From an uncultured bacterium (lineage in GTDB: Bacteria; Hydrothermota; Tepidihabitantia; Tepidihabitantales; CAIPLT01), in the NCBI GenBank assembly GCA_964642595.1, contig CAZXRM010000021.1, positions 1 to 13,368 on the forward strand: 13,368 nucleotides of DNA, given 5' to 3'. This document shows positions 501 to 13,368 of this stretch, one piece after another (position 1 is the first letter of the stretch; each line of letters opens with the position of its first letter). Below the pieces are notes generated by a model. The model worked only from the letters and a program-made list of their open reading frames with translations. It had not been told where the DNA came from and searched no databases. The position numbers were made by a program, and so were the translations under genes.

Positions 501-1469
501 TTAATGCTTTATTGTAAGTTCTTCGGACCATTTGCCGCAACGGTCGCCATAGCGGTCAATGATTTCGTTTTCCCGAAAGGTTTCAATTACTTCGCAAGAA
601 TTCGGGCAGTCTTTGCATTCAAATGCTTTGGTAGTAAATTTAATATCTGCGGTTTCAAAACCAGCAAACTTGGTTTGTTTTCCGTCACTAATATATTCCT
701 GAGCAAGGATTGCCGCACCGATTGCTCCCATCACTAGAAAGTGTTCGGGGATTATAACTTTTTGTTCTAATGCCCGTTCAAATGCAGACTTGACACCGAT
801 ATTTGCCGCAACTCCGCCCTGAAATAGAATCAAGGGATGAATCTCTTTTCCTTTAGCGACCGTATTAAGATAATTTCGGACAATCGCATCGCATAATCCA
901 CGAATAATATCTTCAGTTGAAACACCGAGTTGTGCTTTATGCACCATATCGGATTCAGCAAAGACCGTGCAGCGACCAGCGATTGTTACACCAGTTTCGG
1001 CTTTCAGTGCATAATGACCAAATTCCTCAATCGGGATACCAAGACGGGTTGCCTGATGCTCTAAGAAAGAACCAGTGCCCGCAGCGCAGACTGTGTTCAT
1101 CGCAAAGTCAACTGGTATTCCATCCCGCAAAATAATAATTTTTGAATCCTGTCCTCCAATCTCAATTATAGTTCTGACTTGGGGATGATAATAAGAAGAA
1201 GCAAGGGCGTGAGCAATAATTTCATTTTTTACGACATCCGCGCCAATCATCACACCGGCTAATCGTCTTGCTGAACCGGTTGTGCCGGCACCGATAATTT
1301 TTACATTGTTAATTTGTCTGTGTAATTCTTTTAAAAGTCCTTTGATTGCTTCAACTGGTCGACCTTGGGTTCGGTGATAGGCACTGGCAAGGACTTTACC
1401 ATCTTGAGTAAAAACTACTCCTTTGGTCGAGATTGAACCGACATCAATACCTAAATAAGCAACAGACAT
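501..1469 (-). CDS. ATP-dependent [4Fe-4S] electron-donor ATPase of the BadF/BadG/BcrA/BcrD family (HgdC / YjiL-type 'activase'), with a C-terminal Cys-rich extension
   Basis: The N-terminus after the ATG at 1469 reads MSVAYLGIDVGSISTKGVV, the canonical phosphate-1 motif of HgdC-like ASKHA ATPases. CAAGTGSF and AGRCTVFAESD match the two cluster-ligating Cys motifs of HgdC homodimers. FQGGVAAN is an adenosine motif. The ORF track extends to 1490 using a TTG. The ATG at 1469 is preferred because it restores the family-typical N-terminus. The C-terminal ~45 aa carry CKDCPNSC...DRCGKW. Confidence 0.85.
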   Translation of the reverse strand: MSVAYLGIDVGSISTKGVVFTQDGKVLASAYHRTQGRPVEAIKGLLKELHRQINNVKIIGAGTTGSARRLAGVMIGADVVKNEIIAHALASSYYHPQVRTIIEIGGQDSKIIILRDGIPVDFAMNTVCAAGTGSFLEHQATRLGIPIEEFGHYALKAETGVTIAGRCTVFAESDMVHKAQLGVSTEDIIRGLCDAIVRNYLNTVAKGKEIHPLILFQGGVAANIGVKSAFERALEQKVIIPEHFLVMGAIGAAILAQEYISDGKQTKFAGFETADIKFTTKAFECKDCPNSCEVIETFRENEIIDRYGDRCGKWSEELTIKH

Positions 1470-1480
1470 ATTTATAAGGT

Positions 1481-1590
1481 CAAAGCTCAAAACTCAAAGT
1501 GCAAAACCTCAACTCAAAATTCAAAGTTAATTCTATCTGAAATTTTGAGCTTTTAGCTATAGTTTTGAGTTTTGACATTTGAGTTTTGAG
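1481..1590. repeat. Two inverted arrays of about seven heptamers each (CTCAAAR at 1481-1526; TTTTGAG at 1543-1590), separated by a 16-nt spacer
   Basis: Read directly from the sequence. The core CTCAAAACTCAAA (1486-1498) is a perfect 13-bp complement of TTTGAGTTTTGAG (1578-1590). The right array encodes the C-tail of the 365-aa protein. The left array lies in the region immediately 5' of the activase start. Confidence 0.75.
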
Positions 1591-2654
1591 TTCTCTTTTA
1601 CTGCAGTCAATTTTCTACGTTTGATTAAATCGACAAAGGCCTCTAATCGTGTCAGCAAACCGGTTTTTGATGTATGTTCGTCGATGGATAACGAGAGAAT
1701 TGGTGTCGAGTAGTCATCGCTCATTTTTTGTAATGCTTCGAGTGCAATATTTTCCGGCATACAGGTAAACGGGAAAATATGAATTATACCATCTGCGCCA
1801 TTTTTAATGAAAGTGCGGGCTTCACCGACCGTGTTCAGTGCTTCACCGCCGGGTGATTCTTTGAGATAATCTCGGGCTTGAGAATAATGTTTGTATCTTC
1901 GCCAGTCAATGCGCAGCAGATGTTTCAGATGACTATAAAGACTCCGCTCATTCCAAACCCAGACACCCATTTTGCCTAGTTCTTTTTCAATATCGTGATT
2001 GGCAAACGGCTCAAGCATCAGATAGATTTCACCGACCAAGCCGATTTTAATATTATTTTCAGGTATCTTACTGGTAAAAATGAAAAGTTTTTTCAGTTCT
2101 TTTTTAGCAGTCCGTATCTGTGATAGGATATGGGCATCAGACAGGATTTTTAATGCTTGTTTTTCCAGTTGAGTTGCTTGATTATAATCAATTGCCCTTG
2201 CCTTGCGGATGTATTTACGAAACTCGTCAATCAGAGCGCTGTGTATAAGCATTTGATAGGTTGCTTTGATTACTTTGGCGGGCTTGATTGAGAAAATTTT
2301 CGGCATAATCTGAAATAAAAATTGTAATGGCGTGTACTGGCTGATTGGATAGAATTTGATGTTGGGATTGAATTGTTTTACGATGTTTTCCTGAATGAAG
2401 TGATAATAACCAAACCGGCACTTTTTGGCACCAGCCGCCATAAAAAGTGTGTCGGCGCCGTTTTCGATTGCTTCGATAAAATTACCAAGCGTGATTTTAA
2501 AAGGCAGGCAGATAAGTTCAGGAGAATATTTTGTACCAAGCGAAATAGTTTTTGCGGTTGGCAGAGCAGGCATCCGCACTTCAGCACCAAGCGTCTCAAG
2601 AAAATTTTTGATGGCAATTGTGTCATAACCGAAATAGGGGAAAGCGGCTTTCAT
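1557..2654 (-). CDS. Activase-associated partner subunit, paralog B (resembles the DUF2229-type 'CoA-substrate-specific enzyme activase uncharacterised domain'); substrate unknown
   Basis: A 365-aa ORF overlapping the upstream gene by ATGA (2651-2654), indicating translational coupling. It shares motifs with its neighbour: E-L-I-C-L-P-F-K-I, I-F-P-F-T-C-M-P-E and S-I-D-E-H-T-S-K-T-G-x-x-T-R-L-E-A-F. The last 14 aa (VKENSKLKCQNSKL) are encoded by the TTTTGAG heptamer array. Confidence 0.7.
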   Translation of the reverse strand: MKAAFPYFGYDTIAIKNFLETLGAEVRMPALPTAKTISLGTKYSPELICLPFKITLGNFIEAIENGADTLFMAAGAKKCRFGYYHFIQENIVKQFNPNIKFYPISQYTPLQFLFQIMPKIFSIKPAKVIKATYQMLIHSALIDEFRKYIRKARAIDYNQATQLEKQALKILSDAHILSQIRTAKKELKKLFIFTSKIPENNIKIGLVGEIYLMLEPFANHDIEKELGKMGVWVWNERSLYSHLKHLLRIDWRRYKHYSQARDYLKESPGGEALNTVGEARTFIKNGADGIIHIFPFTCMPENIALEALQKMSDDYSTPILSLSIDEHTSKTGLLTRLEAFVDLIKRRKLTAVKENSKLKCQNSKL

Positions 2655-3562
2655 TGTAATTGGGGTGTGGGGATTTGGGAATGGGGGTTAGTATTTCTAC
2701 GGATAATATCAGCAAATGCTTCGATGCGGGTGTTGATTCCGGTTTTAGAAGTATGCTCGTCAATAACCAATTGCAGAAACGGCAGTTTATATTCACTTGC
2801 CTGTTTCATCATTATTTCACTTATCAAAGAATCAGGACCGCATCCGAAAGAAATAATATTACATACCCCGTCAATTTTATCTAAATTATAGTGAAAGGCA
2901 TTATAAAGTTCCCGTTCGTAAACCCATTTGATATTTTTTGCAAATCCCTGTTCAGAATTGAGGATTTGGGGTGATAAATTTTCTTTGGTGGTAATTGCGA
3001 AATTATTAGATTGGAATAAGTTTATAATATCTTTGCTGATAAAATCATCGGACAGGTTATAAAAATGGCTCAAAAGCAGGATTTTTCTCTGATTATTATT
3101 AATCTTTGATTCTTTAGGATAATCCGATAGATAGGGCAGTCCATTTTTTAGAGCATTGATTGTTTTTACGGGATTTTTTGTTAATTTTAATCCGGTTATA
3201 AAATGGGGATATAGAAAATTATTTTTAATAGTTGGTGAAAGAATCTTACATACACTGCCTGCCTGAATTCTCGCAATATCAACAATCCCAATCATTTTCG
3301 GGCAGGTGTGAAGACCAGAATTGAGATTTAAAAACCGGGGTAAAAAGATATGGTCAACTTTATCTTTGAGAAATTCGATGTGACCGCAGATAATTTTAAT
3401 CGGCAGGCAGATTTCGCTTGACACTTTTTTCAGACCCTGCTGTAAAATATCGTTATTGGTCGGGGGCGAGATTAAATAGTCGATGCCCAGCCCCTGAAAA
3501 AATTTTTCCCAGAACCGGCCATAACGAAAATAAAATAAAGCACGCGGTATCCCGATTTTCAT
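2651..3562 (-). CDS. Activase-associated partner subunit, paralog A (DUF2229-like); first gene of the operon
   Basis: A 303-aa ORF. Its N-terminus, KIGIPRALFYFRYGRFWEKFFQGLGIDY, is of the type I recall from 'acyl-CoA dehydratase activase-related' proteins. It carries S-E-I-C-L-P-I-K-I, I-S-F-G-C-G-P-D-S and V-I-D-E-H-T-S-K-T-G-I-N-T-R-I-E-A-F. The C-terminal tail NTNPHSQIPTPQLQ is encoded by the G-rich element at 2659-2693. Confidence 0.7.
   Translation of the reverse strand: MKIGIPRALFYFRYGRFWEKFFQGLGIDYLISPPTNNDILQQGLKKVSSEICLPIKIICGHIEFLKDKVDHIFLPRFLNLNSGLHTCPKMIGIVDIARIQAGSVCKILSPTIKNNFLYPHFITGLKLTKNPVKTINALKNGLPYLSDYPKESKINNNQRKILLLSHFYNLSDDFISKDIINLFQSNNFAITTKENLSPQILNSEQGFAKNIKWVYERELYNAFHYNLDKIDGVCNIISFGCGPDSLISEIMMKQASEYKLPFLQLVIDEHTSKTGINTRIEAFADIIRRNTNPHSQIPTPQLQ
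2659..2693. repeat. G-rich dispersed element, copy B (AATTGGGGTGTGGGGATTTGGGAATGGGGGTTAGTA); canonical G4 motif with four G-runs and loops of 3, 4 and 3 nt
   Basis: It starts AATTGGGG and ends GTTAGTA, as copy C starts AATTGGGG and ends GTTTGTA. It sits at the junction of the two partner genes and encodes ...NPHSQIPTPQLQ*. Confidence 0.6.
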
Positions 3563-3574
3563 ATTCTATAATCA

Positions 3575-3633
3575 ATTGTATAACCTGCGTGTAAAATGTC
3601 AACTATTGACATAATTTCAGAAAATCATATAAT
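3575..3633. promoter_or_regulatory. Divergent sigma70-like promoters; their -35 hexamers form the 17-bp inverted repeat ATGTCAA-cta-TTGACAT
   Basis: Plus strand: TTGACA (3606-3611), 16-nt spacer, TATAAT (3628-3633), 46 nt upstream of the pilT ATG. Minus strand: TTGACA (rc of 3597-3602), 16-nt spacer, TACAAT (rc of 3575-3580). This places a transcription start only ~5-8 nt before the ATG at 3562, giving a near-leaderless mRNA. Confidence 0.55.
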
Positions 3634-4917: not shown

Positions 4918-5559
4918 ATGTTTTTTATCATACCGATGACACTGCAGGGCAATAATTATTCAATTTATTTCATATCATTGTTTTTTGGGTTTCTTACTGG
5001 CAGTATTCCATTTGGTTATCTTTTAGCCCGCACCCGAGGTATTGATATCCGAAAACAGGGAAGTAAAAACATCGGTTTTACTAATGTCAACCGGGTAATG
5101 GGATTGATTTACGCGATACCGGTTTTGATTTTAGATGTTGCTAAAGGTTTTATCCCGACATATTTTGCCAGCCGTCTCGAATTTATACCAGTTTTAGTCG
5201 GATTGGGAGCCATCATCGGACATATCTTTACGCCGTGGTTATCATTTAAAGGCGGTAAAGGAGTCGCAACGACCATCGGAGTTTTTTCCGCACTAGCACC
5301 GCTTGTTCTTGTTTGTTGTTTGGGAATATTTATTTTAGTCTTATCAATTCTATCGTATATATCAGTTGCATCGCTTGGTTTTGTATTGTCTTTGCCGATA
5401 TTTTCAATTATTCTATATTCAGAAAATAAAATGATATTTTTTTTGGCATTAATTACGGCAATAATTGTAATTATTCGCCATAAAGAGAATATTAAAAGAT
5501 TAATTCAGAAAACTGAACCGAAATTTTCTTTTTTGCGTCTAAAAAGAGACAAGGTATGA
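4918..5559 (+). CDS. plsY: Glycerol-3-phosphate acyltransferase PlsY (acyl-phosphate dependent)
   Basis: GSIPFGYLLA, GSKNIGFTNVNRVMG and FKGGKGVATT motifs. The protein is polytopic and hydrophobic, 213 aa. The real start may be the ATG at 4936 (MTLQ...). Confidence 0.85.
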   Translation: MFFIIPMTLQGNNYSIYFISLFFGFLTGSIPFGYLLARTRGIDIRKQGSKNIGFTNVNRVMGLIYAIPVLILDVAKGFIPTYFASRLEFIPVLVGLGAIIGHIFTPWLSFKGGKGVATTIGVFSALAPLVLVCCLGIFILVLSILSYISVASLGFVLSLPIFSIILYSENKMIFFLALITAIIVIIRHKENIKRLIQKTEPKFSFLRLKRDKV

Positions 5560-6566
5560 AAATTACATTTATTGGTGCCGGACGTTGGGCAATGACCCTG
5601 GCTTTAGTTTTGCACCGTAAAAATATTGCAATATCAATGTGGGAATATTCAGAAGAAAGACTGAATATTTTAAAGAAAACCAAAAAATTAAATGACCTAC
5701 CAGAATCGGTTATAATACCGGATACAATTAATATCAGTAATGATTTAACCGACTCGCTCAAGTTAAGTGAAGTTATATTTTTTGCGATACCATCTCAGGA
5801 ACTGAGGTCAGTATTGACTAAAATGTGGTCAATCGTAGATATTAAAAAAAGTCCGATATTAGTCAGTGCGATTAAAGGGCTGGAAAATAATTCGTACAAA
5901 AGAATTTCAACAATCATTAAAGAATTCTTCCCGGATTTACCGGTAGTTGTACTGGCTGGCCCTGGGATTCCTTTTGAAATAGCACAAGGAAAACCGGCTT
6001 CATTGGTTGCCGCATCGCAGGAACATAATGTTGCGGATATAATCCAAAACCTATTATCTGATGAAAATCTAAGGGTTTATACTCATCCGGATGTAGTCGG
6101 AGTAGAACTGGGCGGTGCACTGAAAAATGTGATAGCAATTGCGGCTGGAATATCAGATGGTTTAAAATTAGGGGATAATGCTAAATCTGCTTTAATTACG
6201 CGCGGGCTCTCCGAGATTACTCGTCTAGGTATAGCACTTAATGCAAATCCGATGACTTTTGCCGGATTATCGGGAATCGGTGATGTAATTGTAACATCTT
6301 ACTCGCCATATTCGCGCAACCATATTTTAGGCGAGCAGATTGGACAGGGTATAATATTGGAGGAGACGATTAAATCACTTAATGGCATTGCCGAAGGAGT
6401 TATGACTGCTAAATCAGCAAAAGGACTTGGTTCAAAAATGCGGGTTGAACTGCCGATTATCGAGCAGATGTACTCAATATTATTTGAGCAAGGCGATATT
6501 GAAAAAAGTATAAAGAAATTAATGGCTCGTCCGTTAAAAAGAGAGATGAATTATGAAAAATTCTAA
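5556..6566 (+). CDS. gpsA: NAD(P)H-dependent glycerol-3-phosphate dehydrogenase GpsA
   Basis: N-terminal Rossmann motif KITFIGAGRWAMTLA. GVELGGALKNVIAIAAGISDGL and LSGIGDVIVT are GpsA signatures. The ATGA overlap with plsY follows the canonical plsY-gpsA pairing. Confidence 0.92.
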   Translation: MKITFIGAGRWAMTLALVLHRKNIAISMWEYSEERLNILKKTKKLNDLPESVIIPDTINISNDLTDSLKLSEVIFFAIPSQELRSVLTKMWSIVDIKKSPILVSAIKGLENNSYKRISTIIKEFFPDLPVVVLAGPGIPFEIAQGKPASLVAASQEHNVADIIQNLLSDENLRVYTHPDVVGVELGGALKNVIAIAAGISDGLKLGDNAKSALITRGLSEITRLGIALNANPMTFAGLSGIGDVIVTSYSPYSRNHILGEQIGQGIILEETIKSLNGIAEGVMTAKSAKGLGSKMRVELPIIEQMYSILFEQGDIEKSIKKLMARPLKREMNYEKF

Positions 6567-7729: not shown

Positions 7730-8824
7730 TTAGTCCATTTGCCTTCGGATAAATGCCGGGATATCTAAGTCGTCTTTGTTAATTGGTGTCGGCTCACCGG
7801 TTTTAATCGGTCTTCGGGTTGGGAATAATTCGTCGGAATTGAGCATATCCATAATCTCTTTTAAATGGGGCAGTGATTCTTCGATACCGGTCGCAATAAC
7901 TGTAACTCGCATGGAATCTTTCAGGTTTTTATCTTTAGTTGCCCCAAAGCGTATATCCGCATGACCATTGGCAGCATTATGAATGATAGTTGCTGCTTCA
8001 TTGACTTCCTGCAAAGTCATTCTTTCATCACCGGCGATATTAAGTAAAATTTTAGTCGCGGTTTCAATATTAGTCTCCTCGATAATCGGTGCGTTGATTG
8101 CCAAATGCGCTGCTTCGGAAGCACGTCCCTGACCTGCTGCAATACCACTGGAAATTAAGGCACCACCTTTTTCTAGCATTACATTTCGGACATCAGCAAA
8201 ATCAATGTTAATTATGCCTGGCTGGGTTATTAAGTCCGAAATACCTTTTACCGCATTTAATAATACATCGTCGGCAATCCGAAATGCCTGAAGACAGGTA
8301 ACCTGACCGTAGTTTTCAATAAGTTTTTGGTTGGGAATGACTATCAATGTGTCAACTTTTTCTTTAAGTTGTTTAATTCCATTATACGCCTGATTGATTC
8401 GGTTTTTCCCTTCAAAATCGAACGGTTTGGTAACGATTGCGATGACAATTGCACCTTGAGTTTTTGCGATTTCCGCAATCAAAGGTGTTGCGCCGGTTCC
8501 AGTACCGCCACCTTCGCCGCATGCCAGAAAAATCATATCATAACCGGTTAGAATATTTTTTATCAAATCCAACGATTCTTCACATGCTTTTCGACCAAGG
8601 TCGGGATTTCCGCCCGAACCGAGTCCACCGGTTATCTGGGCACCGATTTGTATTCTGTTTTCTGCTAGATTCATTGATAATGCCTGCAGGTCAGTATTTA
8701 TCGCATAAAATTCAACATTATTCAATTTTGCCTCGATCATATGATTGATTGCATTATTACCGGCACCGCCGATACCGATAACGGCAATCTTTGCTAAGTT
8801 TTTTTCTTCTACTGGTTCAATCAT
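7730..8824 (-). CDS. ftsZ: Cell division GTPase FtsZ
   Basis: GIGGAGNNAIN and GGGTGTGATP tubulin signatures. The C-terminal conserved peptide DDLDIPAFIRRQ is present. SD GGAG sits 5 nt upstream. Confidence 0.97.
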   Translation of the reverse strand: MIEPVEEKNLAKIAVIGIGGAGNNAINHMIEAKLNNVEFYAINTDLQALSMNLAENRIQIGAQITGGLGSGGNPDLGRKACEESLDLIKNILTGYDMIFLACGEGGGTGTGATPLIAEIAKTQGAIVIAIVTKPFDFEGKNRINQAYNGIKQLKEKVDTLIVIPNQKLIENYGQVTCLQAFRIADDVLLNAVKGISDLITQPGIINIDFADVRNVMLEKGGALISSGIAAGQGRASEAAHLAINAPIIEETNIETATKILLNIAGDERMTLQEVNEAATIIHNAANGHADIRFGATKDKNLKDSMRVTVIATGIEESLPHLKEIMDMLNSDELFPTRRPIKTGEPTPINKDDLDIPAFIRRQMD

Positions 8825-8842
8825 TATTACTCCTTTTAATGG

Positions 8843-10105
8843 TTACATAAATAATTGTTTTATCATTGCTGAAAGCTGTTCGAATATGTTTTCACTCGAT
8901 GATGTTTTAATATCCATACCATTGACGGTCGGTATAATTGATTGACTGCGTGTTCCATTTTGAATCAGACCATATCGAATCAAACCGAGTGCGGTATAGT
9001 AGGTCGGGTCCGAGATATCACTTGTTTCATCGGAATTTGTCCGATAATTGGCAACTTTAACCGGCAATCTAAAAATCTGCTCAGCTAGAATATCTATTCC
9101 TTTGAGCAATGAAGTCCCCCCGGTCAGAATAATACCACCGGAAAGCCCTTCGGCTAAACCAGTCTCCCGGATTGCATTGTCACAATGCTGTAGAATTTCT
9201 TCAATTCTGGGTTCGATAATTGATGTGAGTAATCGCTGAGAAATCGGGCGATTGACACGACCACTCATATCCTCGATAACAATTGGTTCGTCATGGTCAA
9301 TGCAGCTAATCATTGCCCGACCATAAAGTTTTTTAATTTCTTCGGCTTTTTTATACGGAGTGCGAAGCCCAATTGATATATCTTTAGTTAGATTATCACC
9401 GCCTAAAGGTAATGCTTTATAAAAACGCAAGACACCATCTTTAAAAATAGAAAGATTGGTATTGCCGCCGATATCAACGAGTGCAATTCCTAAATCTTTA
9501 TCTTCAGGTTCGGCAACCGTTAAGGAAATTGCTTGGGGTTGCAGCACTAAAGAATTAGCTTTCAGTTCAAGATGGTCAAGCACCCGATGCAGATTTTCAA
9601 CTGCGGAAAGCGTGCCAATTATTAAAAGCGCATCGAGTTCCAACCGTACTCCGAACATACCAATTGGATTGCGAATTCCCTTTTGCCCGTCAACGATGAA
9701 CTGGTTGGGTATTAAATGAATGATTTGCTCATCGGGCGGGAGCCGAATTGCCTGTGCCTGGCGCAGACATTCATTGACATCTTTTTCAGTTATTCCTTTA
9801 CCGGGATTTTTCACGGGCGCGGTTCCAACGCTGGGCATTTGTTTGATGTACGAACCAGAAATTCCGACAAAAATACGGCAGTTCTTCGCTCGGACATTGG
9901 CCATTTTTTCCGCATCTTCGATAGCTTGAGCAACCGAAACAACTGCTCGTTCTAAATTAATCACGATACCGTTTCTAAAGCCCTCGGGATTGGAAATTCC
10001 CTGACCAATAATATTTAATTTACCGTTATTGTCACTTTCCGCAATGACACTTGCGATTTTGGTCGAGCCGACATCTAAACCAAGTATTCTTTTTAACTTT
10101 GCCAT
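8843..10105 (-). CDS. ftsA: Cell division protein FtsA
   Basis: LGLDVGSTKI N-terminal actin fold. VDIGGNTN, ILTGGTS and a C-terminal amphipathic helix are present. SD GAGGTG is upstream. It lies directly upstream of ftsZ. Confidence 0.95.
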   Translation of the reverse strand: MAKLKRILGLDVGSTKIASVIAESDNNGKLNIIGQGISNPEGFRNGIVINLERAVVSVAQAIEDAEKMANVRAKNCRIFVGISGSYIKQMPSVGTAPVKNPGKGITEKDVNECLRQAQAIRLPPDEQIIHLIPNQFIVDGQKGIRNPIGMFGVRLELDALLIIGTLSAVENLHRVLDHLELKANSLVLQPQAISLTVAEPEDKDLGIALVDIGGNTNLSIFKDGVLRFYKALPLGGDNLTKDISIGLRTPYKKAEEIKKLYGRAMISCIDHDEPIVIEDMSGRVNRPISQRLLTSIIEPRIEEILQHCDNAIRETGLAEGLSGGIILTGGTSLLKGIDILAEQIFRLPVKVANYRTNSDETSDISDPTYYTALGLIRYGLIQNGTRSQSIIPTVNGMDIKTSSSENIFEQLSAMIKQLFM

Positions 10106-10109
10106 TTTT

Positions 10110-11084
10110 TCACCTCACTTCACTTAATTTATTTGGAAAGATTTGTATTTCCTGTTTTAATAATGTACCGGTTTTTAATTCAACGGTACTATTAATGATT
10201 TGAATAAGTTCATAAACATCATTAAAATCTGCATTGTTTTGATTTATTATAAAATTGCCATGCTTTTCCGAAATACAGGCGCCTTTAATTTTCAATCCCT
10301 TAAGCCCACAATCATCAATTAATTTACCAGCAGCAGCGATTGATGGATTTCTGAATACTGAACCAGCTGATGCACCGGTGGGCTGGGTTGCTTTTCTTTT
10401 TAGTTGATACTCGTTAATCTTCCGTCCGATTTTTATTTTGTTACCAAATTCCAATTTCAATTTGCCATGAGTTATAACAAAACCATCTGGCAAATTTGAT
10501 TTACGATATTTAAAATTTAATTCTTTTCGGGTAAGTATTACATCTTCGCCAGTACTTGATATTCCATTGATTTGTTCGATTAAATCTCCGATGTTCTGTG
10601 AAAACGCACCGGCATTAGAATAAATTGCCCCGCCGAATGAACCAGGAATTCCCCAGACGAATTCGATACCGGATAAAGATCGGGCAACCGCATATCGAAG
10701 CAGTTTTGACAAAGGTGTCGCGGCGCCAACAGACAATTGGGGATTAGAGATTAGGGGTGGGGAGTTTGTATGTGCTGACACTATATTATCGAATGCTTTG
10801 CCAAGTTTGATTGTAATTCCTTTTAATCCTTGTTGCGATATCAAAATATTTGAACCTTGACCGATTATGAAATATGGAATTTTTTCTTGATGGGAAAATT
10901 GCAATATCCTTTTCAGGTCGTCTGAAGAATTGATAATAACCAAACATTCAGCATTGCCACCGATGTGAAATGTCGTGTACTTAAATAGTGGTTCGTTCCA
11001 CAGTACTTTAGTTAATTCAGACTCGCCTCGCTGAGTCGAAGCGGGAGTTATAATATTTTTAATAATTCTTCGCCAATCTGCCAT
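10110..11084 (-). CDS. murB: UDP-N-acetylenolpyruvoylglucosamine reductase MurB
   Basis: YTTFHIGGNAE FAD-binding N-terminus. GQGSNIL, GIPGSFGGAIYSNAGA and GACISEKHGNFIIN motifs. SD AGGAG is upstream. The ORF contains an in-frame G-rich element at 10735-10764 encoding SPPLISNPQL. Confidence 0.9.
   Translation of the reverse strand: MADWRRIIKNIITPASTQRGESELTKVLWNEPLFKYTTFHIGGNAECLVIINSSDDLKRILQFSHQEKIPYFIIGQGSNILISQQGLKGITIKLGKAFDNIVSAHTNSPPLISNPQLSVGAATPLSKLLRYAVARSLSGIEFVWGIPGSFGGAIYSNAGAFSQNIGDLIEQINGISSTGEDVILTRKELNFKYRKSNLPDGFVITHGKLKLEFGNKIKIGRKINEYQLKRKATQPTGASAGSVFRNPSIAAAGKLIDDCGLKGLKIKGACISEKHGNFIINQNNADFNDVYELIQIINSTVELKTGTLLKQEIQIFPNKLSEVR
10735..10764. repeat. G-rich dispersed element, copy C (AATTGGGGATTAGAGATTAGGGGTGGGGAG) in frame inside murB
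   Basis: Its reverse complement is translated in the murB frame as (N)SPPLISNPQL. The tail P-Q-L from CCC-CAA-TT is the same as at copy B. Confidence 0.6.
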
Positions 11085-12433
11085 ATATTACCTGCTCCTA
11101 ATGTAATAATAACATCATTTGGTTTAATTATGTTTAATAAATAAGTTATGATATCCGGAAAACTTTCTTTATAAATTATTTCTAAATTGGGCATCTTAGT
11201 TTTTTTATTTGTTGTGTTTTTTATCGCATCAATAATAATTTCGGATGTTATACCGGGAATGGGTGTTTCGGAGGCAGAATATATCTTGGTCAATACAAGA
11301 TTATCAATCGAGTTAAAGCAGTTTTGGAAATCATTTACCAAAAATTTCGTTCGGGTGTAACGGTGCGGTTGAAAAATAGTTATAATTCTATTATTGGGAT
11401 AGGCATTGCGTAAGGTGGTAAGAGTTGCTTTTATCTCAGTCGGATGATGCCCATAATCATCATAGATGCTTATATTATTTTTTTCGCCTTTGAATTCCAG
11501 ACGGCGATGAACGCCTTTAAAATTTTCAAGCGACTGGATGATTTGAGACAGTGAAATTTCGAGTTTCAAACCAACGCAAATTGTTGCCAATGCATTTTTA
11601 ATATTATGTTTGCCGGCGACATTAAGTTTACAGTCAAGTGATTGACCATTATACCGTAAGGTAAATCGTGAGCCAAAATTTAAAAGCTTAATATTTTCAG
11701 CACGCACCTGAGCGTTCTTATTGATACCAAAAGTGATGTATTCTCTTTTAATCATCGGTATTACTTTACGGACTTGCGGGCAGTCAATGCCAAGAATCGT
11801 CGAGCCAAAAAATGGAGTTTTATTGACAAACCGAATAAATGCTTTCTTAATTTCCGAAATATTACGGTAATAATCCAGATGTTCGCGTTCGATATTTGTC
11901 ACAACCGCAATGGTCGGATAAAGCAATAAAAATGAGCGGTCACTTTCATCGGCTTCCGCAATCAAGTATTGACCGGTACCGAGTTTTGCACCGGAATTCG
12001 ATCCCAGAACTCGTCCACCAATGATAATCGTCGGATTAAGACCAGAGTCTTCCAACATTGTTCCGACCATTGATGTGACGGTTGTTTTGCCATGAGTTCC
12101 GGATACGGCAATGGAAAATTTCATTCTCATTAATTCGGCTAACATTTCGGCACGGGGGATAACTGGTATTTTATTTGCCAAAGCATATTGGATTTCTGGA
12201 TTATTTTGGTTTATTGCCGAAGAATAAACGACAACCTCGGCATTCTGACAATTTGACGAATTATGTTCATAAAAAATTTTAATAGCCTGCTTTTCTAAAG
12301 TGTCAGTGAGGTTTGATTTGCTTATGTCCGAACCAGAGATATTAAATCCCATATTTTTCAGAATTAAAGCAATACCCGACATACCCGAACCGCCGATACC
12401 GACAAAATGAATATGATTAATTTTACCGAACAT
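11048..12433 (-). CDS. murC: UDP-N-acetylmuramate--L-alanine ligase MurC
   Basis: IHFVGIGGSGMSGIA N-terminal motif. GTHGKTTVTSM P-loop. The Mur ligase middle and C-terminal domains are present (DDYGHHPTE). The ORF overlaps murB by 37 nt. Confidence 0.95.
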   Translation of the reverse strand: MFGKINHIHFVGIGGSGMSGIALILKNMGFNISGSDISKSNLTDTLEKQAIKIFYEHNSSNCQNAEVVVYSSAINQNNPEIQYALANKIPVIPRAEMLAELMRMKFSIAVSGTHGKTTVTSMVGTMLEDSGLNPTIIIGGRVLGSNSGAKLGTGQYLIAEADESDRSFLLLYPTIAVVTNIEREHLDYYRNISEIKKAFIRFVNKTPFFGSTILGIDCPQVRKVIPMIKREYITFGINKNAQVRAENIKLLNFGSRFTLRYNGQSLDCKLNVAGKHNIKNALATICVGLKLEISLSQIIQSLENFKGVHRRLEFKGEKNNISIYDDYGHHPTEIKATLTTLRNAYPNNRIITIFQPHRYTRTKFLVNDFQNCFNSIDNLVLTKIYSASETPIPGITSEIIIDAIKNTTNKKTKMPNLEIIYKESFPDIITYLLNIIKPNDVIITLGAGNIWQIGEELLKIL

Positions 12434-12435
12434 TT

Positions 12436-13368
12436 TTATTGTTTATGAGTTAATGGATTTTTGAGTTGATGGGTTGATGATGTTGTGTTATTTAATATAT
12501 GTTGTGCGATTTTTTCCGCCGAATCAATTTTTGCAAGAGCAAATGCATTTTTACTCATTTCGTTTAATTTGTTTTTATTATTTATTAATGATTCAAGGAT
12601 GTTTTTTAGTTGTGAAACAAATTCTTGAGAATATCCAGAGCGGCGGTGTTGGTCTAAAATGATTGCAGCGTTGTTTTGGGCTAAAAACTGAGCATTCGCT
12701 GCTTGGTGGTTATCTGTGGCAAATGGGAAGGGAATAATTATGGATGGGATACCAAAAACTAATATTTCTGATAAGACCATACCGCCGGCTCGGGATATTA
12801 CAATACTCGATTTTTCGTAATACGTTTCTATGGACAAAGTAAAATCAATTAACTGACAATTATTTGATTTTACTAATTGTTTGATTTTCTCATAATCACG
12901 CTTGCCGGTCTGAATAATAAAATTCAGTTCCGGCATTTGTGCGGCAAGTTCTACAATATTTAAATTGATAAAACTCGCACCCTGACTTCCGCCAAGAACT
13001 AAAATAGTCTTGCCATCATCTTTTCGTTTGTGATTCAATACTTCGAGACGCAATGGATTTCCAGTATAAACAGTTCTTGCCTTAATCTTTTTCAGTAATG
13101 GAAATCCAAGAAATACCAACTTTGCCCATTTTGCAAAATATTTGGTGGTGCGACCCGGGATGCGATTTTGTTCTAATATAAAGAATTTAATATGCAAAAT
13201 CAATGACCAAAGAATCGGAACTAATGCAGTATAACCACTACTTGAGACAATTGCATCCGGTCTTTCTTTATATAAAATTTTAGGAAATATTATCATCGCC
13301 ATTATGATATTTAAGAAGAATGTAATTTTATCTTTTACACCTTTACCAAAAAAACCGCTGAATGGCAA
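12436..13368 (-). CDS. murG: MurG, undecaprenyl-PP-MurNAc-pentapeptide UDP-GlcNAc transferase; the N-terminus lies beyond the window edge
   Basis: ILVLGGSQGA and the GT-B C-domain motifs (GIPSIIIPFPFATDNHQAANA) are present. The ORF is open to the window end. It carries an unusual C-terminal tail, NNTTSSTHQLKNPLTHKQ. Confidence 0.9.
   Translation of the reverse strand: MPFSGFFGKGVKDKITFFLNIIMAMIIFPKILYKERPDAIVSSSGYTALVPILWSLILHIKFFILEQNRIPGRTTKYFAKWAKLVFLGFPLLKKIKARTVYTGNPLRLEVLNHKRKDDGKTILVLGGSQGASFINLNIVELAAQMPELNFIIQTGKRDYEKIKQLVKSNNCQLIDFTLSIETYYEKSSIVISRAGGMVLSEILVFGIPSIIIPFPFATDNHQAANAQFLAQNNAAIILDQHRRSGYSQEFVSQLKNILESLINNKNKLNEMSKNAFALAKIDSAEKIAQHILNNTTSSTHQLKNPLTHKQ

Follow-up and report, generated by a model that had tools for sequence, protein, structure and literature searches.

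A split three-gene operon of two DUF2229 proteins and an activase as a candidate ether-lipid-forming reductase of the Pls/Ger type

This report deals with an operon of three genes in an uncultured bacterium of the Hydrothermota (assembly GCA_964642595.1, contig CAZXRM010000021.1); the whole stretch of 13,368 nucleotides that was analysed is called the window. All three genes lie on the minus strand, and we term the 303-residue gene A, the 365-residue gene B and the activase gene C. On sequence grounds we assign A-B-C to the DUF2229 branch of the benzoyl-coenzyme A (CoA) reductase/2-hydroxyacyl-CoA dehydratase superfamily of radical enzymes, as a fully split member. With a probability of roughly 0.55 we further propose that the operon encodes a split, ATP-dependent and ferredoxin-fed reductase of the Pls/Ger type, which would convert the sn-1 acyl ester of glycerolipids into a vinyl or alkyl ether. 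The proposal is based on the homology of every part, on the pattern of metal ligands, on the conservation of the operon and on the recurrent adjacency of phospholipid genes.

The product of gene C matches BcrAD_BadFG (PF01869) with 171.6 bits (cut-off 31.5) and TIGR00241 with 193.7 bits (cut-off 125.4). In the alignment to HgdC (1hux, E = 5.8e-34), the cluster ligands C127 and C166 are matched by C135 and C174 of C, which also contains the GIDVGS motif. An earlier note on this DNA had taken C for an authentic ATPase of the HgdC/BcrAD class carrying the GIDVGS motif and both cluster cysteines, and it is confirmed here.

In both partner proteins Pfam finds DUF2229 (PF09989), with 128.8 bits in A and 48.4 bits in B (cut-off 29.4). 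The matches to HGD-D (PF06050) are below the cut-off of 28.4 bits (A 19.3 bits, B 21.9 bits) and cover only the last ~60 residues. A and B are paralogs with 48% identity across the C-terminal 60 residues (E = 3e-17) and 30% across the N-terminal 76 residues; B further contains a helical insertion of about 90 residues (residues ~109-196). Thus, the earlier note was right in describing two small paralogous partners of 303 and 365 residues and an unfused 'acyl-CoA dehydratase activase-related / DUF2229' module, and the Pfam check that it had proposed returns DUF2229, DUF2229 and BcrAD_BadFG above their cut-offs with HGD-D sub-threshold. Pseudogenes or chance open reading frames (ORFs) were considered and rejected, the genes being conserved across phyla.

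The AlphaFold2 models of A and B have predicted local distance difference test (pLDDT) scores of 87.8 and 86.4. With Foldseek, the model of A matches HadC (3o3n_B, E = 1e-9), and the model of B matches the double-cubane cluster protein (DCCP) 7yyl as top hit together with HadC, at about 1e-7 (3o3n_B 4e-7). Overall, both models match HadC, DCCP, BzdN/O and MbdO/N with E-values between 1e-9 and 1e-4, and superposition onto 3o3n_B gives a TM-score of about 0.53-0.56 for A and B. Judged from these models, the HadC-like fold indicates membership in the superfamily, not in the family. Foldseek and PDB sequence searches found no solved structure for the split DUF2229 family.

Conserved residues were followed in family alignments and hidden Markov models (HMMs) of 83 proteins of type A, 78 of type B and 62 of type C, taken from 85 loci. 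Three cysteines are invariant in A (C52, C87 and C241 in 83/83 proteins, as is H61) and likewise three in B (C49, C79 and C298 in 78/78), which answers the question of the earlier note whether the cysteines hold across orthologs. The note had counted two shared cysteine positions; the motifs that it quoted, E-I/L-C-L-P-x-K-I, F-x-C-x-P-D/E and IDEHTSKTG, are real and kept in the orthologs, but each partner has three invariant cysteines. In work attributed to Knauer et al. 2011, HadB and HadC reportedly each bind their own [4Fe-4S] cluster on three cysteines. The three invariant cysteines of each partner are therefore consistent with a separate [4Fe-4S] site in each of the two subunits, as in HadBC. 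The D-E-H-T stretch is invariant in the WOR-3-type A and B orthologs of the window; in the wider split family D-E is near-invariant and the histidine is present in 88% of A and 33% of B.

In C, the cluster cysteines C135 and C174 are invariant in 62/62 orthologs. So are C292, C295, C299 and C318 in the C-terminal tail, which the earlier note had missed. The tail is absent from HgdC, HadI and MbdQ; the activases in the PDB have 243-276 residues and end before it.

The plasmalogen synthase PlsA/PlsR, reportedly described by Jackson in 2021, has the architecture DUF2229 plus BcrAD_BadFG, and the glycerol ester reductase Ger, reportedly described by Sahonero-Canavesi in 2022, shares it. The module is thus not biochemically unassigned, as the earlier note had held: two PF01869 domains and one PF09989 domain are the published architecture of PlsA/PlsR and Ger, and Ger contains small PF06050/PF09989 pieces in addition (PMC13159169). 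PlsA-PlsR of C. perfringens converts diacyl glycerophospholipids into 1-alk-1'-enyl lipids, and single-gene forms in facultative anaerobes do likewise (PMC9702350, PMC12838417, PMC10191378); Listeria makes plasmalogens anaerobically and carries a pls ortholog (PMC9702350). Ger from T. maritima and D. alkenivorans gives 1-O-alkyl ethers on anaerobic expression in E. coli. The substrate class of PlsA/PlsR and Ger is the sn-1 acyl ester of glycerophospholipids (PMC13159169, PMC9702350, PMC12838417, PMC8788747), and a core termed BBD, in which BB stands for the tandem activase, is conserved in all tested ether-lipid producers (PMC13159169).

Fused homologs were gathered by tblastn from a plasmid collection, in records of chromosome size, and sampled from Listeria, Acetoanaerobium, Collinsella, Subdoligranulum, Fusobacterium, Haliovirga, Brevibacillus and Paraclostridium. 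The protein of Listeria monocytogenes has 1475 residues and is 45-54% identical to its relatives in Acetoanaerobium, Collinsella, Subdoligranulum and Fusobacterium, the latter with two genes of 975 and 404 residues as in C. perfringens. Haliovirga, Brevibacillus, Paraclostridium and a second Collinsella gene represent more distant fused types. In the single genome of Collinsella aerofaciens we find two fused DUF2229 paralogs of different clades, one of 1593 residues (PlsA-like) and one of 1479 residues (45% identical to the Haliovirga protein), and each adjoins a TetR-family regulator (L089:1249-6030 and L092:3841-8280; loci of the comparison are cited by number).

The three proteins of the operon can be assigned to individual parts of the fused enzymes, that is, to the reductase domains Red1 and Red2 and to the second of the two activase domains, Act1 and Act2. 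The A-family HMM matches Red1 over its full length with 114-191 bits and Red2 with less than 10 bits. For the B-family HMM the values are 48-67 bits with Red2/PlsR-like and 14-21 bits with Red1 domains, and the C-family HMM scores 177-287 bits with Act2 and 108-180 bits with Act1. BLASTP of C against the Listeria protein gives 34% identity over 315 residues (E = 3e-51), of A against Listeria Red1 24% over 318 residues (E = 1e-17), of B against Listeria Red2 20% over 383 residues (E = 1e-5) and of B against the PlsR-like protein of Fusobacterium 22% over 394 residues (E = 3e-10). The CxxCxxxC...C tail of C corresponds to the linker between Act2 and Red1 in fused PlsA-type proteins; its sequence ECKDCPNSCE...DRCGK aligns to RCNLCSNTCQ...GNRCER at positions 604-632 of the Listeria protein. 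The C-family HMM spans this tail in four of six fused proteins (Listeria, Haliovirga, Fusobacterium and Collinsella, up to HMM position 314-320 of 323), and the tail is outside the match in Paraclostridium (up to 264) and Brevibacillus (up to 298). The Red1 and Red2 domains from Listeria, Collinsella and Fusobacterium retain all six reductase cysteines. From the HMM scores, the BLASTP matches and the shared cysteines we therefore classify A as Red1 type, B as Red2/PlsR type and C as Act2 type.

Since DUF2229 together with BcrAD_BadFG is an architecture with a known substrate class, the claim of the earlier note that the operon is an undescribed redox system is weakened; partners that match a family of known substrate were what the note itself had named as a refutation. 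Going by its sequence relationships, the operon is a widespread split variant of a known system and not an unknown one. We found no description of the three-gene split form in the searchable literature.

We infer the cluster content, a homodimeric activase, the electron route, a lipid substrate and its product, and the reaction might run as follows. By homology to HgdC, a homodimer of C would hold one [4Fe-4S] cluster between its two C135/C174 pairs. The homodimer is presumed to replace the tandem pair of the fused enzymes, because the module has no counterpart of Act1. Reduced ferredoxin or flavodoxin would donate an electron to C, and ATP hydrolysis would bring this electron to a very low potential. 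The electron could then pass to the A-B heterodimer, possibly via the four-cysteine tail of C. A and B may each hold one [4Fe-4S] cluster on three cysteines, leaving the fourth iron free for the carbonyl oxygen as in HadBC. The most likely substrate would be a membrane glycerophospholipid, reduced at its sn-1 acyl ester. Two one-electron steps coupled to ATP, together with protonation, would lead to a hemiacetal, which by dehydration would become the 1-alk-1'-enyl (plasmalogen) ether; two sequential one-electron reductions, protonation and dehydration have been proposed as mechanism before (PMC8788747). One more reduction could lead on to a saturated 1-O-alkyl ether such as Ger makes. The sequence is compatible with either product, the vinyl ether of Pls or the saturated ether of Ger.

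The operon is not restricted to the window. The named relatives of its proteins belong to candidate division WOR-3. A search of 1.84 billion cluster representatives returned 2557 clusters (at 50% identity) with E <= 1e-3 and 358 with E <= 1e-30. Among the best 150 of the 2557 clusters almost all proteins are stand-alone, with 283-386 residues; ten have 670-770 residues, consistent with A-B fusions as in L018 and L038, and a fused form of about 1400 residues does not occur among these 150. A scan of the GTDB species genomes with a 10-sequence alignment gave 80 loci in Bacillota, Actinomycetota, Dehalococcoidia, Petrotogaceae and WOR-3. Cultured carriers among the Bacillota include Alkaliphilus peptidifermentans, Anaerovirgula multivorans, Caloranaerobacter azorensis, Orenia metallireducens and Fervidicola ferrireducens, and the same operon is found in Monoglobus pectinilyticus (L006:6001-9218). 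The order A-B-C is kept across phyla, with C adjacent in 62 of 85 loci. As the operon is conserved in several phyla, the split layout is common and not peculiar to the window. One Dehalococcoidales locus (L070:6996-9151) carries tandem B-type genes in the order A-B-B-C.

For hints to the substrate we took a census of the neighbouring genes, which comprises 134 immediate neighbours and 270 neighbours when second neighbours are included. Ten of the 134 (~7%) are phospholipid enzymes. In five Dehalococcoidia-type loci plsX follows directly downstream of C and is itself followed by thioredoxin and thioredoxin reductase; in four Clostridia loci the gene that immediately precedes A, on the same strand, codes for a cardiolipin synthase of ~500 residues (TIGR04265, 401 bits); and in one Actinomycetota locus gpsA is directly upstream of A. 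Among the second neighbours only plsY of WOR-3 is added as a lipid gene. Thus, from the census, the phospholipid genes plsX, cls, gpsA and plsY are the only metabolic theme which recurs in unrelated lineages. The earlier note had proposed to look for a co-localized gene of substrate handling; the phospholipid genes recur in separate lineages, but their share among the immediate neighbours is small. Three genes of ~390 residues downstream of C, tried as matches to the phospholipase D (PLD) domain of cardiolipin synthase, were rejected; they are alanine racemase and others.

In the window itself, glycerophospholipid synthesis is represented by plsY and gpsA, which code for its initial steps. The pair is divergently oriented and 1.4 kb away from gene A, with a pilT-like gene in between. 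This layout of pilT, plsY and gpsA is the same in the close relatives L001-L003 and differs in L004. Because a 48%-identical relative has other neighbours, the conserved unit is the three genes; we regard plsY-gpsA as context and not as an established part of the system.

Candidate genes for an electron supply are found as well, among them the thioredoxin and thioredoxin reductase genes of the Dehalococcoidia-type loci. NfnA-like proteins account for 3 of the 134 immediate neighbours, and an NfnA/NfnB-like pair is located 3' of the module in five Actinomycetota loci. In these loci (L011:5502-7775, L013, L016, L053 and L057) an NfnA-like protein with a DHODB_Fe-S_bind domain and an NfnB/GltD-like protein with Fer4_20 and Pyr_redox_2 domains come after the module. 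It is plausible that the pair supplies reduced ferredoxin.

Other neighbourhoods are recorded here for completeness. The full layout of the Dehalococcoidia-type loci (L043:4830-11441, L051, L052, L066 and L080) comprises, on the same strand, an M20 peptidase, A, B, C, plsX, thioredoxin, a 113-residue protein without Pfam match and thioredoxin reductase; L070 and L074 have parts of this layout, and no plsX was found there. In ten loci of Tissierellia and Clostridia (e.g. L015:2025-3488) the gene immediately preceding A, on the same strand, encodes a conserved protein of ~487 residues without Pfam or NCBIfam match. In anaerobic spore-formers of several orders the genes are arranged as spoIIAA-spoIIAB-sigF-spoVAC-spoVAD-spoVAE-spoVAF(GerA)-[A-B-C]-lysA (L017:215-11025, L024, L034, L045, L084 and about 12 more). 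The position between spoVA and lysA suggests either expression linked to the forespore or an ancient insertion between these genes.

Several findings speak against an ether-lipid product. A is 23-27%, B 20-22% and C 31-34% identical to homologs of the PlsA clade (Listeria, Fusobacterium and Collinsella). Accepted pls orthologs have 41-55% identity to PlsA/PlsR of C. perfringens (PMC12838417), and our values are far below this range, with the limitation that they refer to homologs and not to the experimentally tested proteins Q8XL48 and Q8XL47 (C. perfringens), Q835P9 (E. faecalis) and AGL49404 (T. maritima). The nearest fused type in our sample is an uncharacterised Paraclostridium protein of 1282 residues (A 27%, E = 1e-27; C 44%). 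The split form has no tandem activase pair, only a single gene of Act2 type, and a second BcrAD ORF was found neither in the window nor adjoining the module in 62 loci. There is also no fusion of the activase with Red1, but three separate ORFs with the activase last. The PlsA clade has IDEINNLG in place of D-E-H-T, and among the fused proteins D-E-H-(T/S) occurs only in the 1282-residue Paraclostridium type. The adjacency of lipid genes is limited to three or four lineages, and in at least 17 Firmicute loci the sporulation block spoVA...lysA is the conserved context. For WOR-3 we found no lipid data in the literature. Finally, the DUF2229 superfamily has several deep clades, two of which may share one genome as in Collinsella, so functions may differ by clade.

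The strongest competitor, which we consider possible yet clearly less probable than an ether-lipid synthase, is that the same machinery works on another substrate. The split proteins would then form a separate clade of the DUF2229 branch and would direct ATP-driven low-potential electrons to another ester or thioester, to an acyl-CoA or, in Firmicutes, to a metabolite linked to sporulation. In essence, this corresponds to the orphan module of the earlier note. It would be in line with the low identity of A and B to the PlsA-clade domains (20-27%), with the distinctive D-E-H-T motif and single-activase layout, with the fact that one genome can harbour several DUF2229 clades and with the lack of a lipid gene adjoining the module in most loci. 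It also agrees with the position of the module between spoVA and lysA in Firmicutes, where spoVAF/GerA is the most frequent conserved neighbour (17 of 134), and with the silence of the searchable literature on the split form. However, the parts map one to one on Red1, Red2 and Act2, including the cysteine tail and the six reductase cysteines, and both characterised clades of the branch have the same substrate class. Moreover, the sole recurrent metabolic neighbours in unrelated lineages are phospholipid genes, and a CoA-transferase, an acyl-CoA ligase or a hydroxyacid dehydrogenase was not found among the 270 neighbours of the census. Equally tentative is the broader notion that the split family is not an ether-lipid synthase at all but a distinct and very widespread ATP-driven radical reductase or dehydratase, which would account for the D-E-H-T motif, the spoVA-lysA placement and the coexisting DUF2229 clades.

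It is improbable that the operon encodes a genuine 2-hydroxyacyl-CoA dehydratase of the HgdAB/HadBC kind, or a benzoyl-CoA reductase of class I, whose subunits have merely been reduced in size and whose substrate is a CoA thioester. HadC, BzdN/O and MbdO/N are the best Foldseek matches in the PDB, there are weak C-terminal HGD-D matches, NCBI automatically names some B orthologs '2-hydroxyacyl-CoA dehydratase', and a fused DUF2229 protein was once read as an aromatic acyl-CoA reductase (PMC11362221). The HGD-D matches, however, are sub-threshold and limited to 60 residues, and in PDB sequence searches with A, B and the A-family profile the matches to HadC and DCCP did not extend beyond the C-terminal helix. 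The NCBIfam models for HadC, benzoyl-CoA reductases (Bcr), Bzd, DCCP and methanogenesis marker 15 are all far below their cut-offs for the operon proteins: NF052456 (HadC) scores 14.5 bits (cut-off 700), NF040772 (DCCP) 11.7 bits (cut-off 350), and of the Bcr/Bzd models TIGR02259 reaches 101 bits (cut-off 578), TIGR03192 76.7 bits (cut-off 380) and TIGR02261 69.4 bits (cut-off 313). Membership in the DCCP and benzoyl-CoA reductase families was rejected on these scores. A benzoyl-CoA reductase further needs two different ATPase subunits, of which one is present, and the 270 neighbours contain no CoA-handling genes.

The suggestion of the earlier note that A and B contribute two cysteines each to a single interfacial Fe-S cluster, which agrees with the finding that only two cysteine positions align directly between A and B (pairwise and with MAFFT, which offsets C87 of A and C79 of B because the loop lengths differ), is very unlikely because each partner has three invariant cysteines, the third following directly after the same beta-strand (in 'CPK' of A and in 'C-R-x-G-x-Y' of B); three cysteines per catalytic subunit are the usual pattern of the superfamily, and Red1 and Red2 of the fused enzymes have cysteines at these three positions as well.

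Were ether or vinyl-ether lipids the product of the split module, the predicted anaerobic producers would extend to WOR-3, many Actinomycetota, Dehalococcoidia and numerous Clostridia. Published surveys, such as the large one for Ger (PMC13159169), were run with a fused Ger/PlsA query of ~1400 residues, E <= 1e-50 and a query coverage of no less than 30%. Because a subunit of 300-365 residues corresponds to about one quarter of this query, split carriers were probably missed. An ether-lipid function would also bear on the 'lipid divide' and on the question which organisms leave ether-lipid biomarkers in anoxic sediments. For structural and mechanistic work the split form would offer a practical minimal system of three small proteins with a presumably homodimeric activase. 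Should the function be another one, the module would be among the uncharacterised ATP-dependent radical enzymes with the widest distribution in anaerobes.

The coordinates of the operon and of its signals are compiled in Table 1. For gene C the ATG start is preferred over the TTG alternative, because the resulting length agrees with the ortholog lengths of 317-322 residues. The three genes had been described in the earlier note as translationally coupled. This applies to the A/B junction, where the genes overlap by 4 nt (ATGA), but B and C are separated by 87 nt. This spacer holds a strong inverted repeat with a predicted RNA fold of -35.4 kcal/mol (z = -3.32), which is probably an intercistronic stem-loop. 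Close relatives lack the repeat, their spacers being ~10-12 nt long (L001, L003).

Table 1. Features of the three-gene operon and its surroundings in the window
Feature	Position	Strand	Remarks
Gene A	3562..2651	-	303 aa; predicted stand-alone DUF2229 reductase subunit, Red1 type (= PlsA C-terminal domain)
Gene A, conserved residues	C52 = 3409-3407; H61; C87 = 3304-3302; C241 = 2842-2840; D268-E269-H-T	-	ortholog alignment
Gene B	2654..1557	-	365 aa; predicted paralogous reductase subunit, Red2/PlsR type
Gene B, conserved residues	C49 = 2510-2508; C79 = 2420-2418; C298 = 1763-1761; D325-E326	-	ortholog alignment
Gene C	1469..501 from ATG	-	322 aa; TTG alternative at 1490 (329 aa); HgdC/BcrAD-type ATPase, Act2 type
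Gene C, [4Fe-4S]-bridging Cys (by homology)	C135 = 1088-1086; C174 = 971-969	-	numbering from TTG; aligned to HgdC
Gene C, Cys-rich C-terminal tail	537..617	-	C292-x2-C295-x3-C299 ... C318
Inverted repeat	1476..1592	-	spans B 3' end and 87-nt B-C spacer; arms up to 22 nt
Promoter-like site, gene A	3575..3602	-	TTGACA-16-TACAAT; 11/12 consensus matches; pattern match only
Consensus promoter, pilT-like gene	3606-3633	+	12/12 matches (consensus scan); pattern match only
plsY	4918-5559	+	TIGR00023, 166.8 bits (cut-off 137.2)
gpsA	5556-6566	+	NF000942, 358 bits (cut-off 257)

The two promoter-like sites form a pair of near-perfect sigma-70 consensus promoters, back to back at 3575-3633 within the 118 bp that separate gene A from the pilT-like gene. 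Downstream of C, positions 1-500 are AT-rich (32% GC) and contain no ORF of at least 60 residues, no tRNA and no Rfam match; Rfam and tRNA scans of the whole window were empty. On the minus strand, positions 7730-13368 carry a division block of murG-murC-murB-ftsA-ftsZ. No ORF for ddl or ftsQ is present between murB, which ends at 10110, and ftsA, which starts at 10105, and the block is equally compact in L001 and L003 of WOR-3.

How does the split module compare with the known systems? It resembles DCCP and its partner DCCP-R in the related fold and in having a separate ATPase partner, which is homodimeric for DCCP and presumably so here. Three invariant cysteines per subunit, however, are probably too few for a double-cubane [8Fe-9S] site, a judgement for which we draw on what Jeoung and Dobbek reportedly described in 2018. 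With the class I benzoyl-CoA reductases (BcrABCD, BzdNOPQ and MbdONPQ) it has related folds in common (Foldseek matches 8s02 and 9g87) and, as we suppose, the stoichiometric electron transfer coupled to ATP and directed to a difficult substrate. These reductases differ in having two distinct ATPase subunits and larger catalytic subunits, whereas only one ATPase gene is present here.

The systems HgdAB/HgdC and HadBC/HadI are closer in their organization. They share the homologous activase with the same two cluster cysteines, the HadC fold, three cysteines per catalytic subunit and, as presumed for the split module, the arrangement of a separate homodimeric activator with a heterodimeric catalytic pair. 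The catalytic subunits are larger, with 374-385 residues for HadC (PDB chains) and, according to the earlier note, ~45-50 kDa for HgdA and HgdB, against 303 and 365 residues here. The sequence likeness is limited to the last 60 residues, the activator of the split module has the additional four-cysteine tail, genes of a CoA pathway are absent from its neighbourhood, and the reaction is likely a net reduction instead of a redox-neutral dehydration.

Ger (Tmari_0479 of T. maritima; SHJ90043 of Desulfatibacillum alkenivorans) belongs to the same DUF2229 branch. Compared by the published Pfam strings, BBDHDDH and BBDHDHDH, small HGD-D matches follow the DUF2229 domains in Ger, and the proteins of genes A and B likewise each show D plus H; the PlsA-clade protein of Listeria has no HGD-D match. 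Ger differs in being a single fused polypeptide with two activase domains.

The closest correspondence is to PlsA/PlsR (CPE1194/1195 of C. perfringens and the single-gene forms of Enterococcus, Listeria, Lactococcus and Bifidobacterium). In PlsA/PlsR the order is Act1-Act2-Red1(+Red2), in contrast to Red1-Red2-Act as separate genes in the split form, and the activase is a tandem pseudo-dimer instead of one domain that is presumed to form a homodimer. The identity is 20-34%, and D-E-H-T is found in the split form and not in the PlsA clade. Both systems nevertheless occur in anaerobes, both combine a BcrAD_BadFG activase with two paralogous modules of the DUF2229 type, and the six reductase cysteines, the two cluster cysteines of the activase and the four-cysteine linker motif are all common to them.

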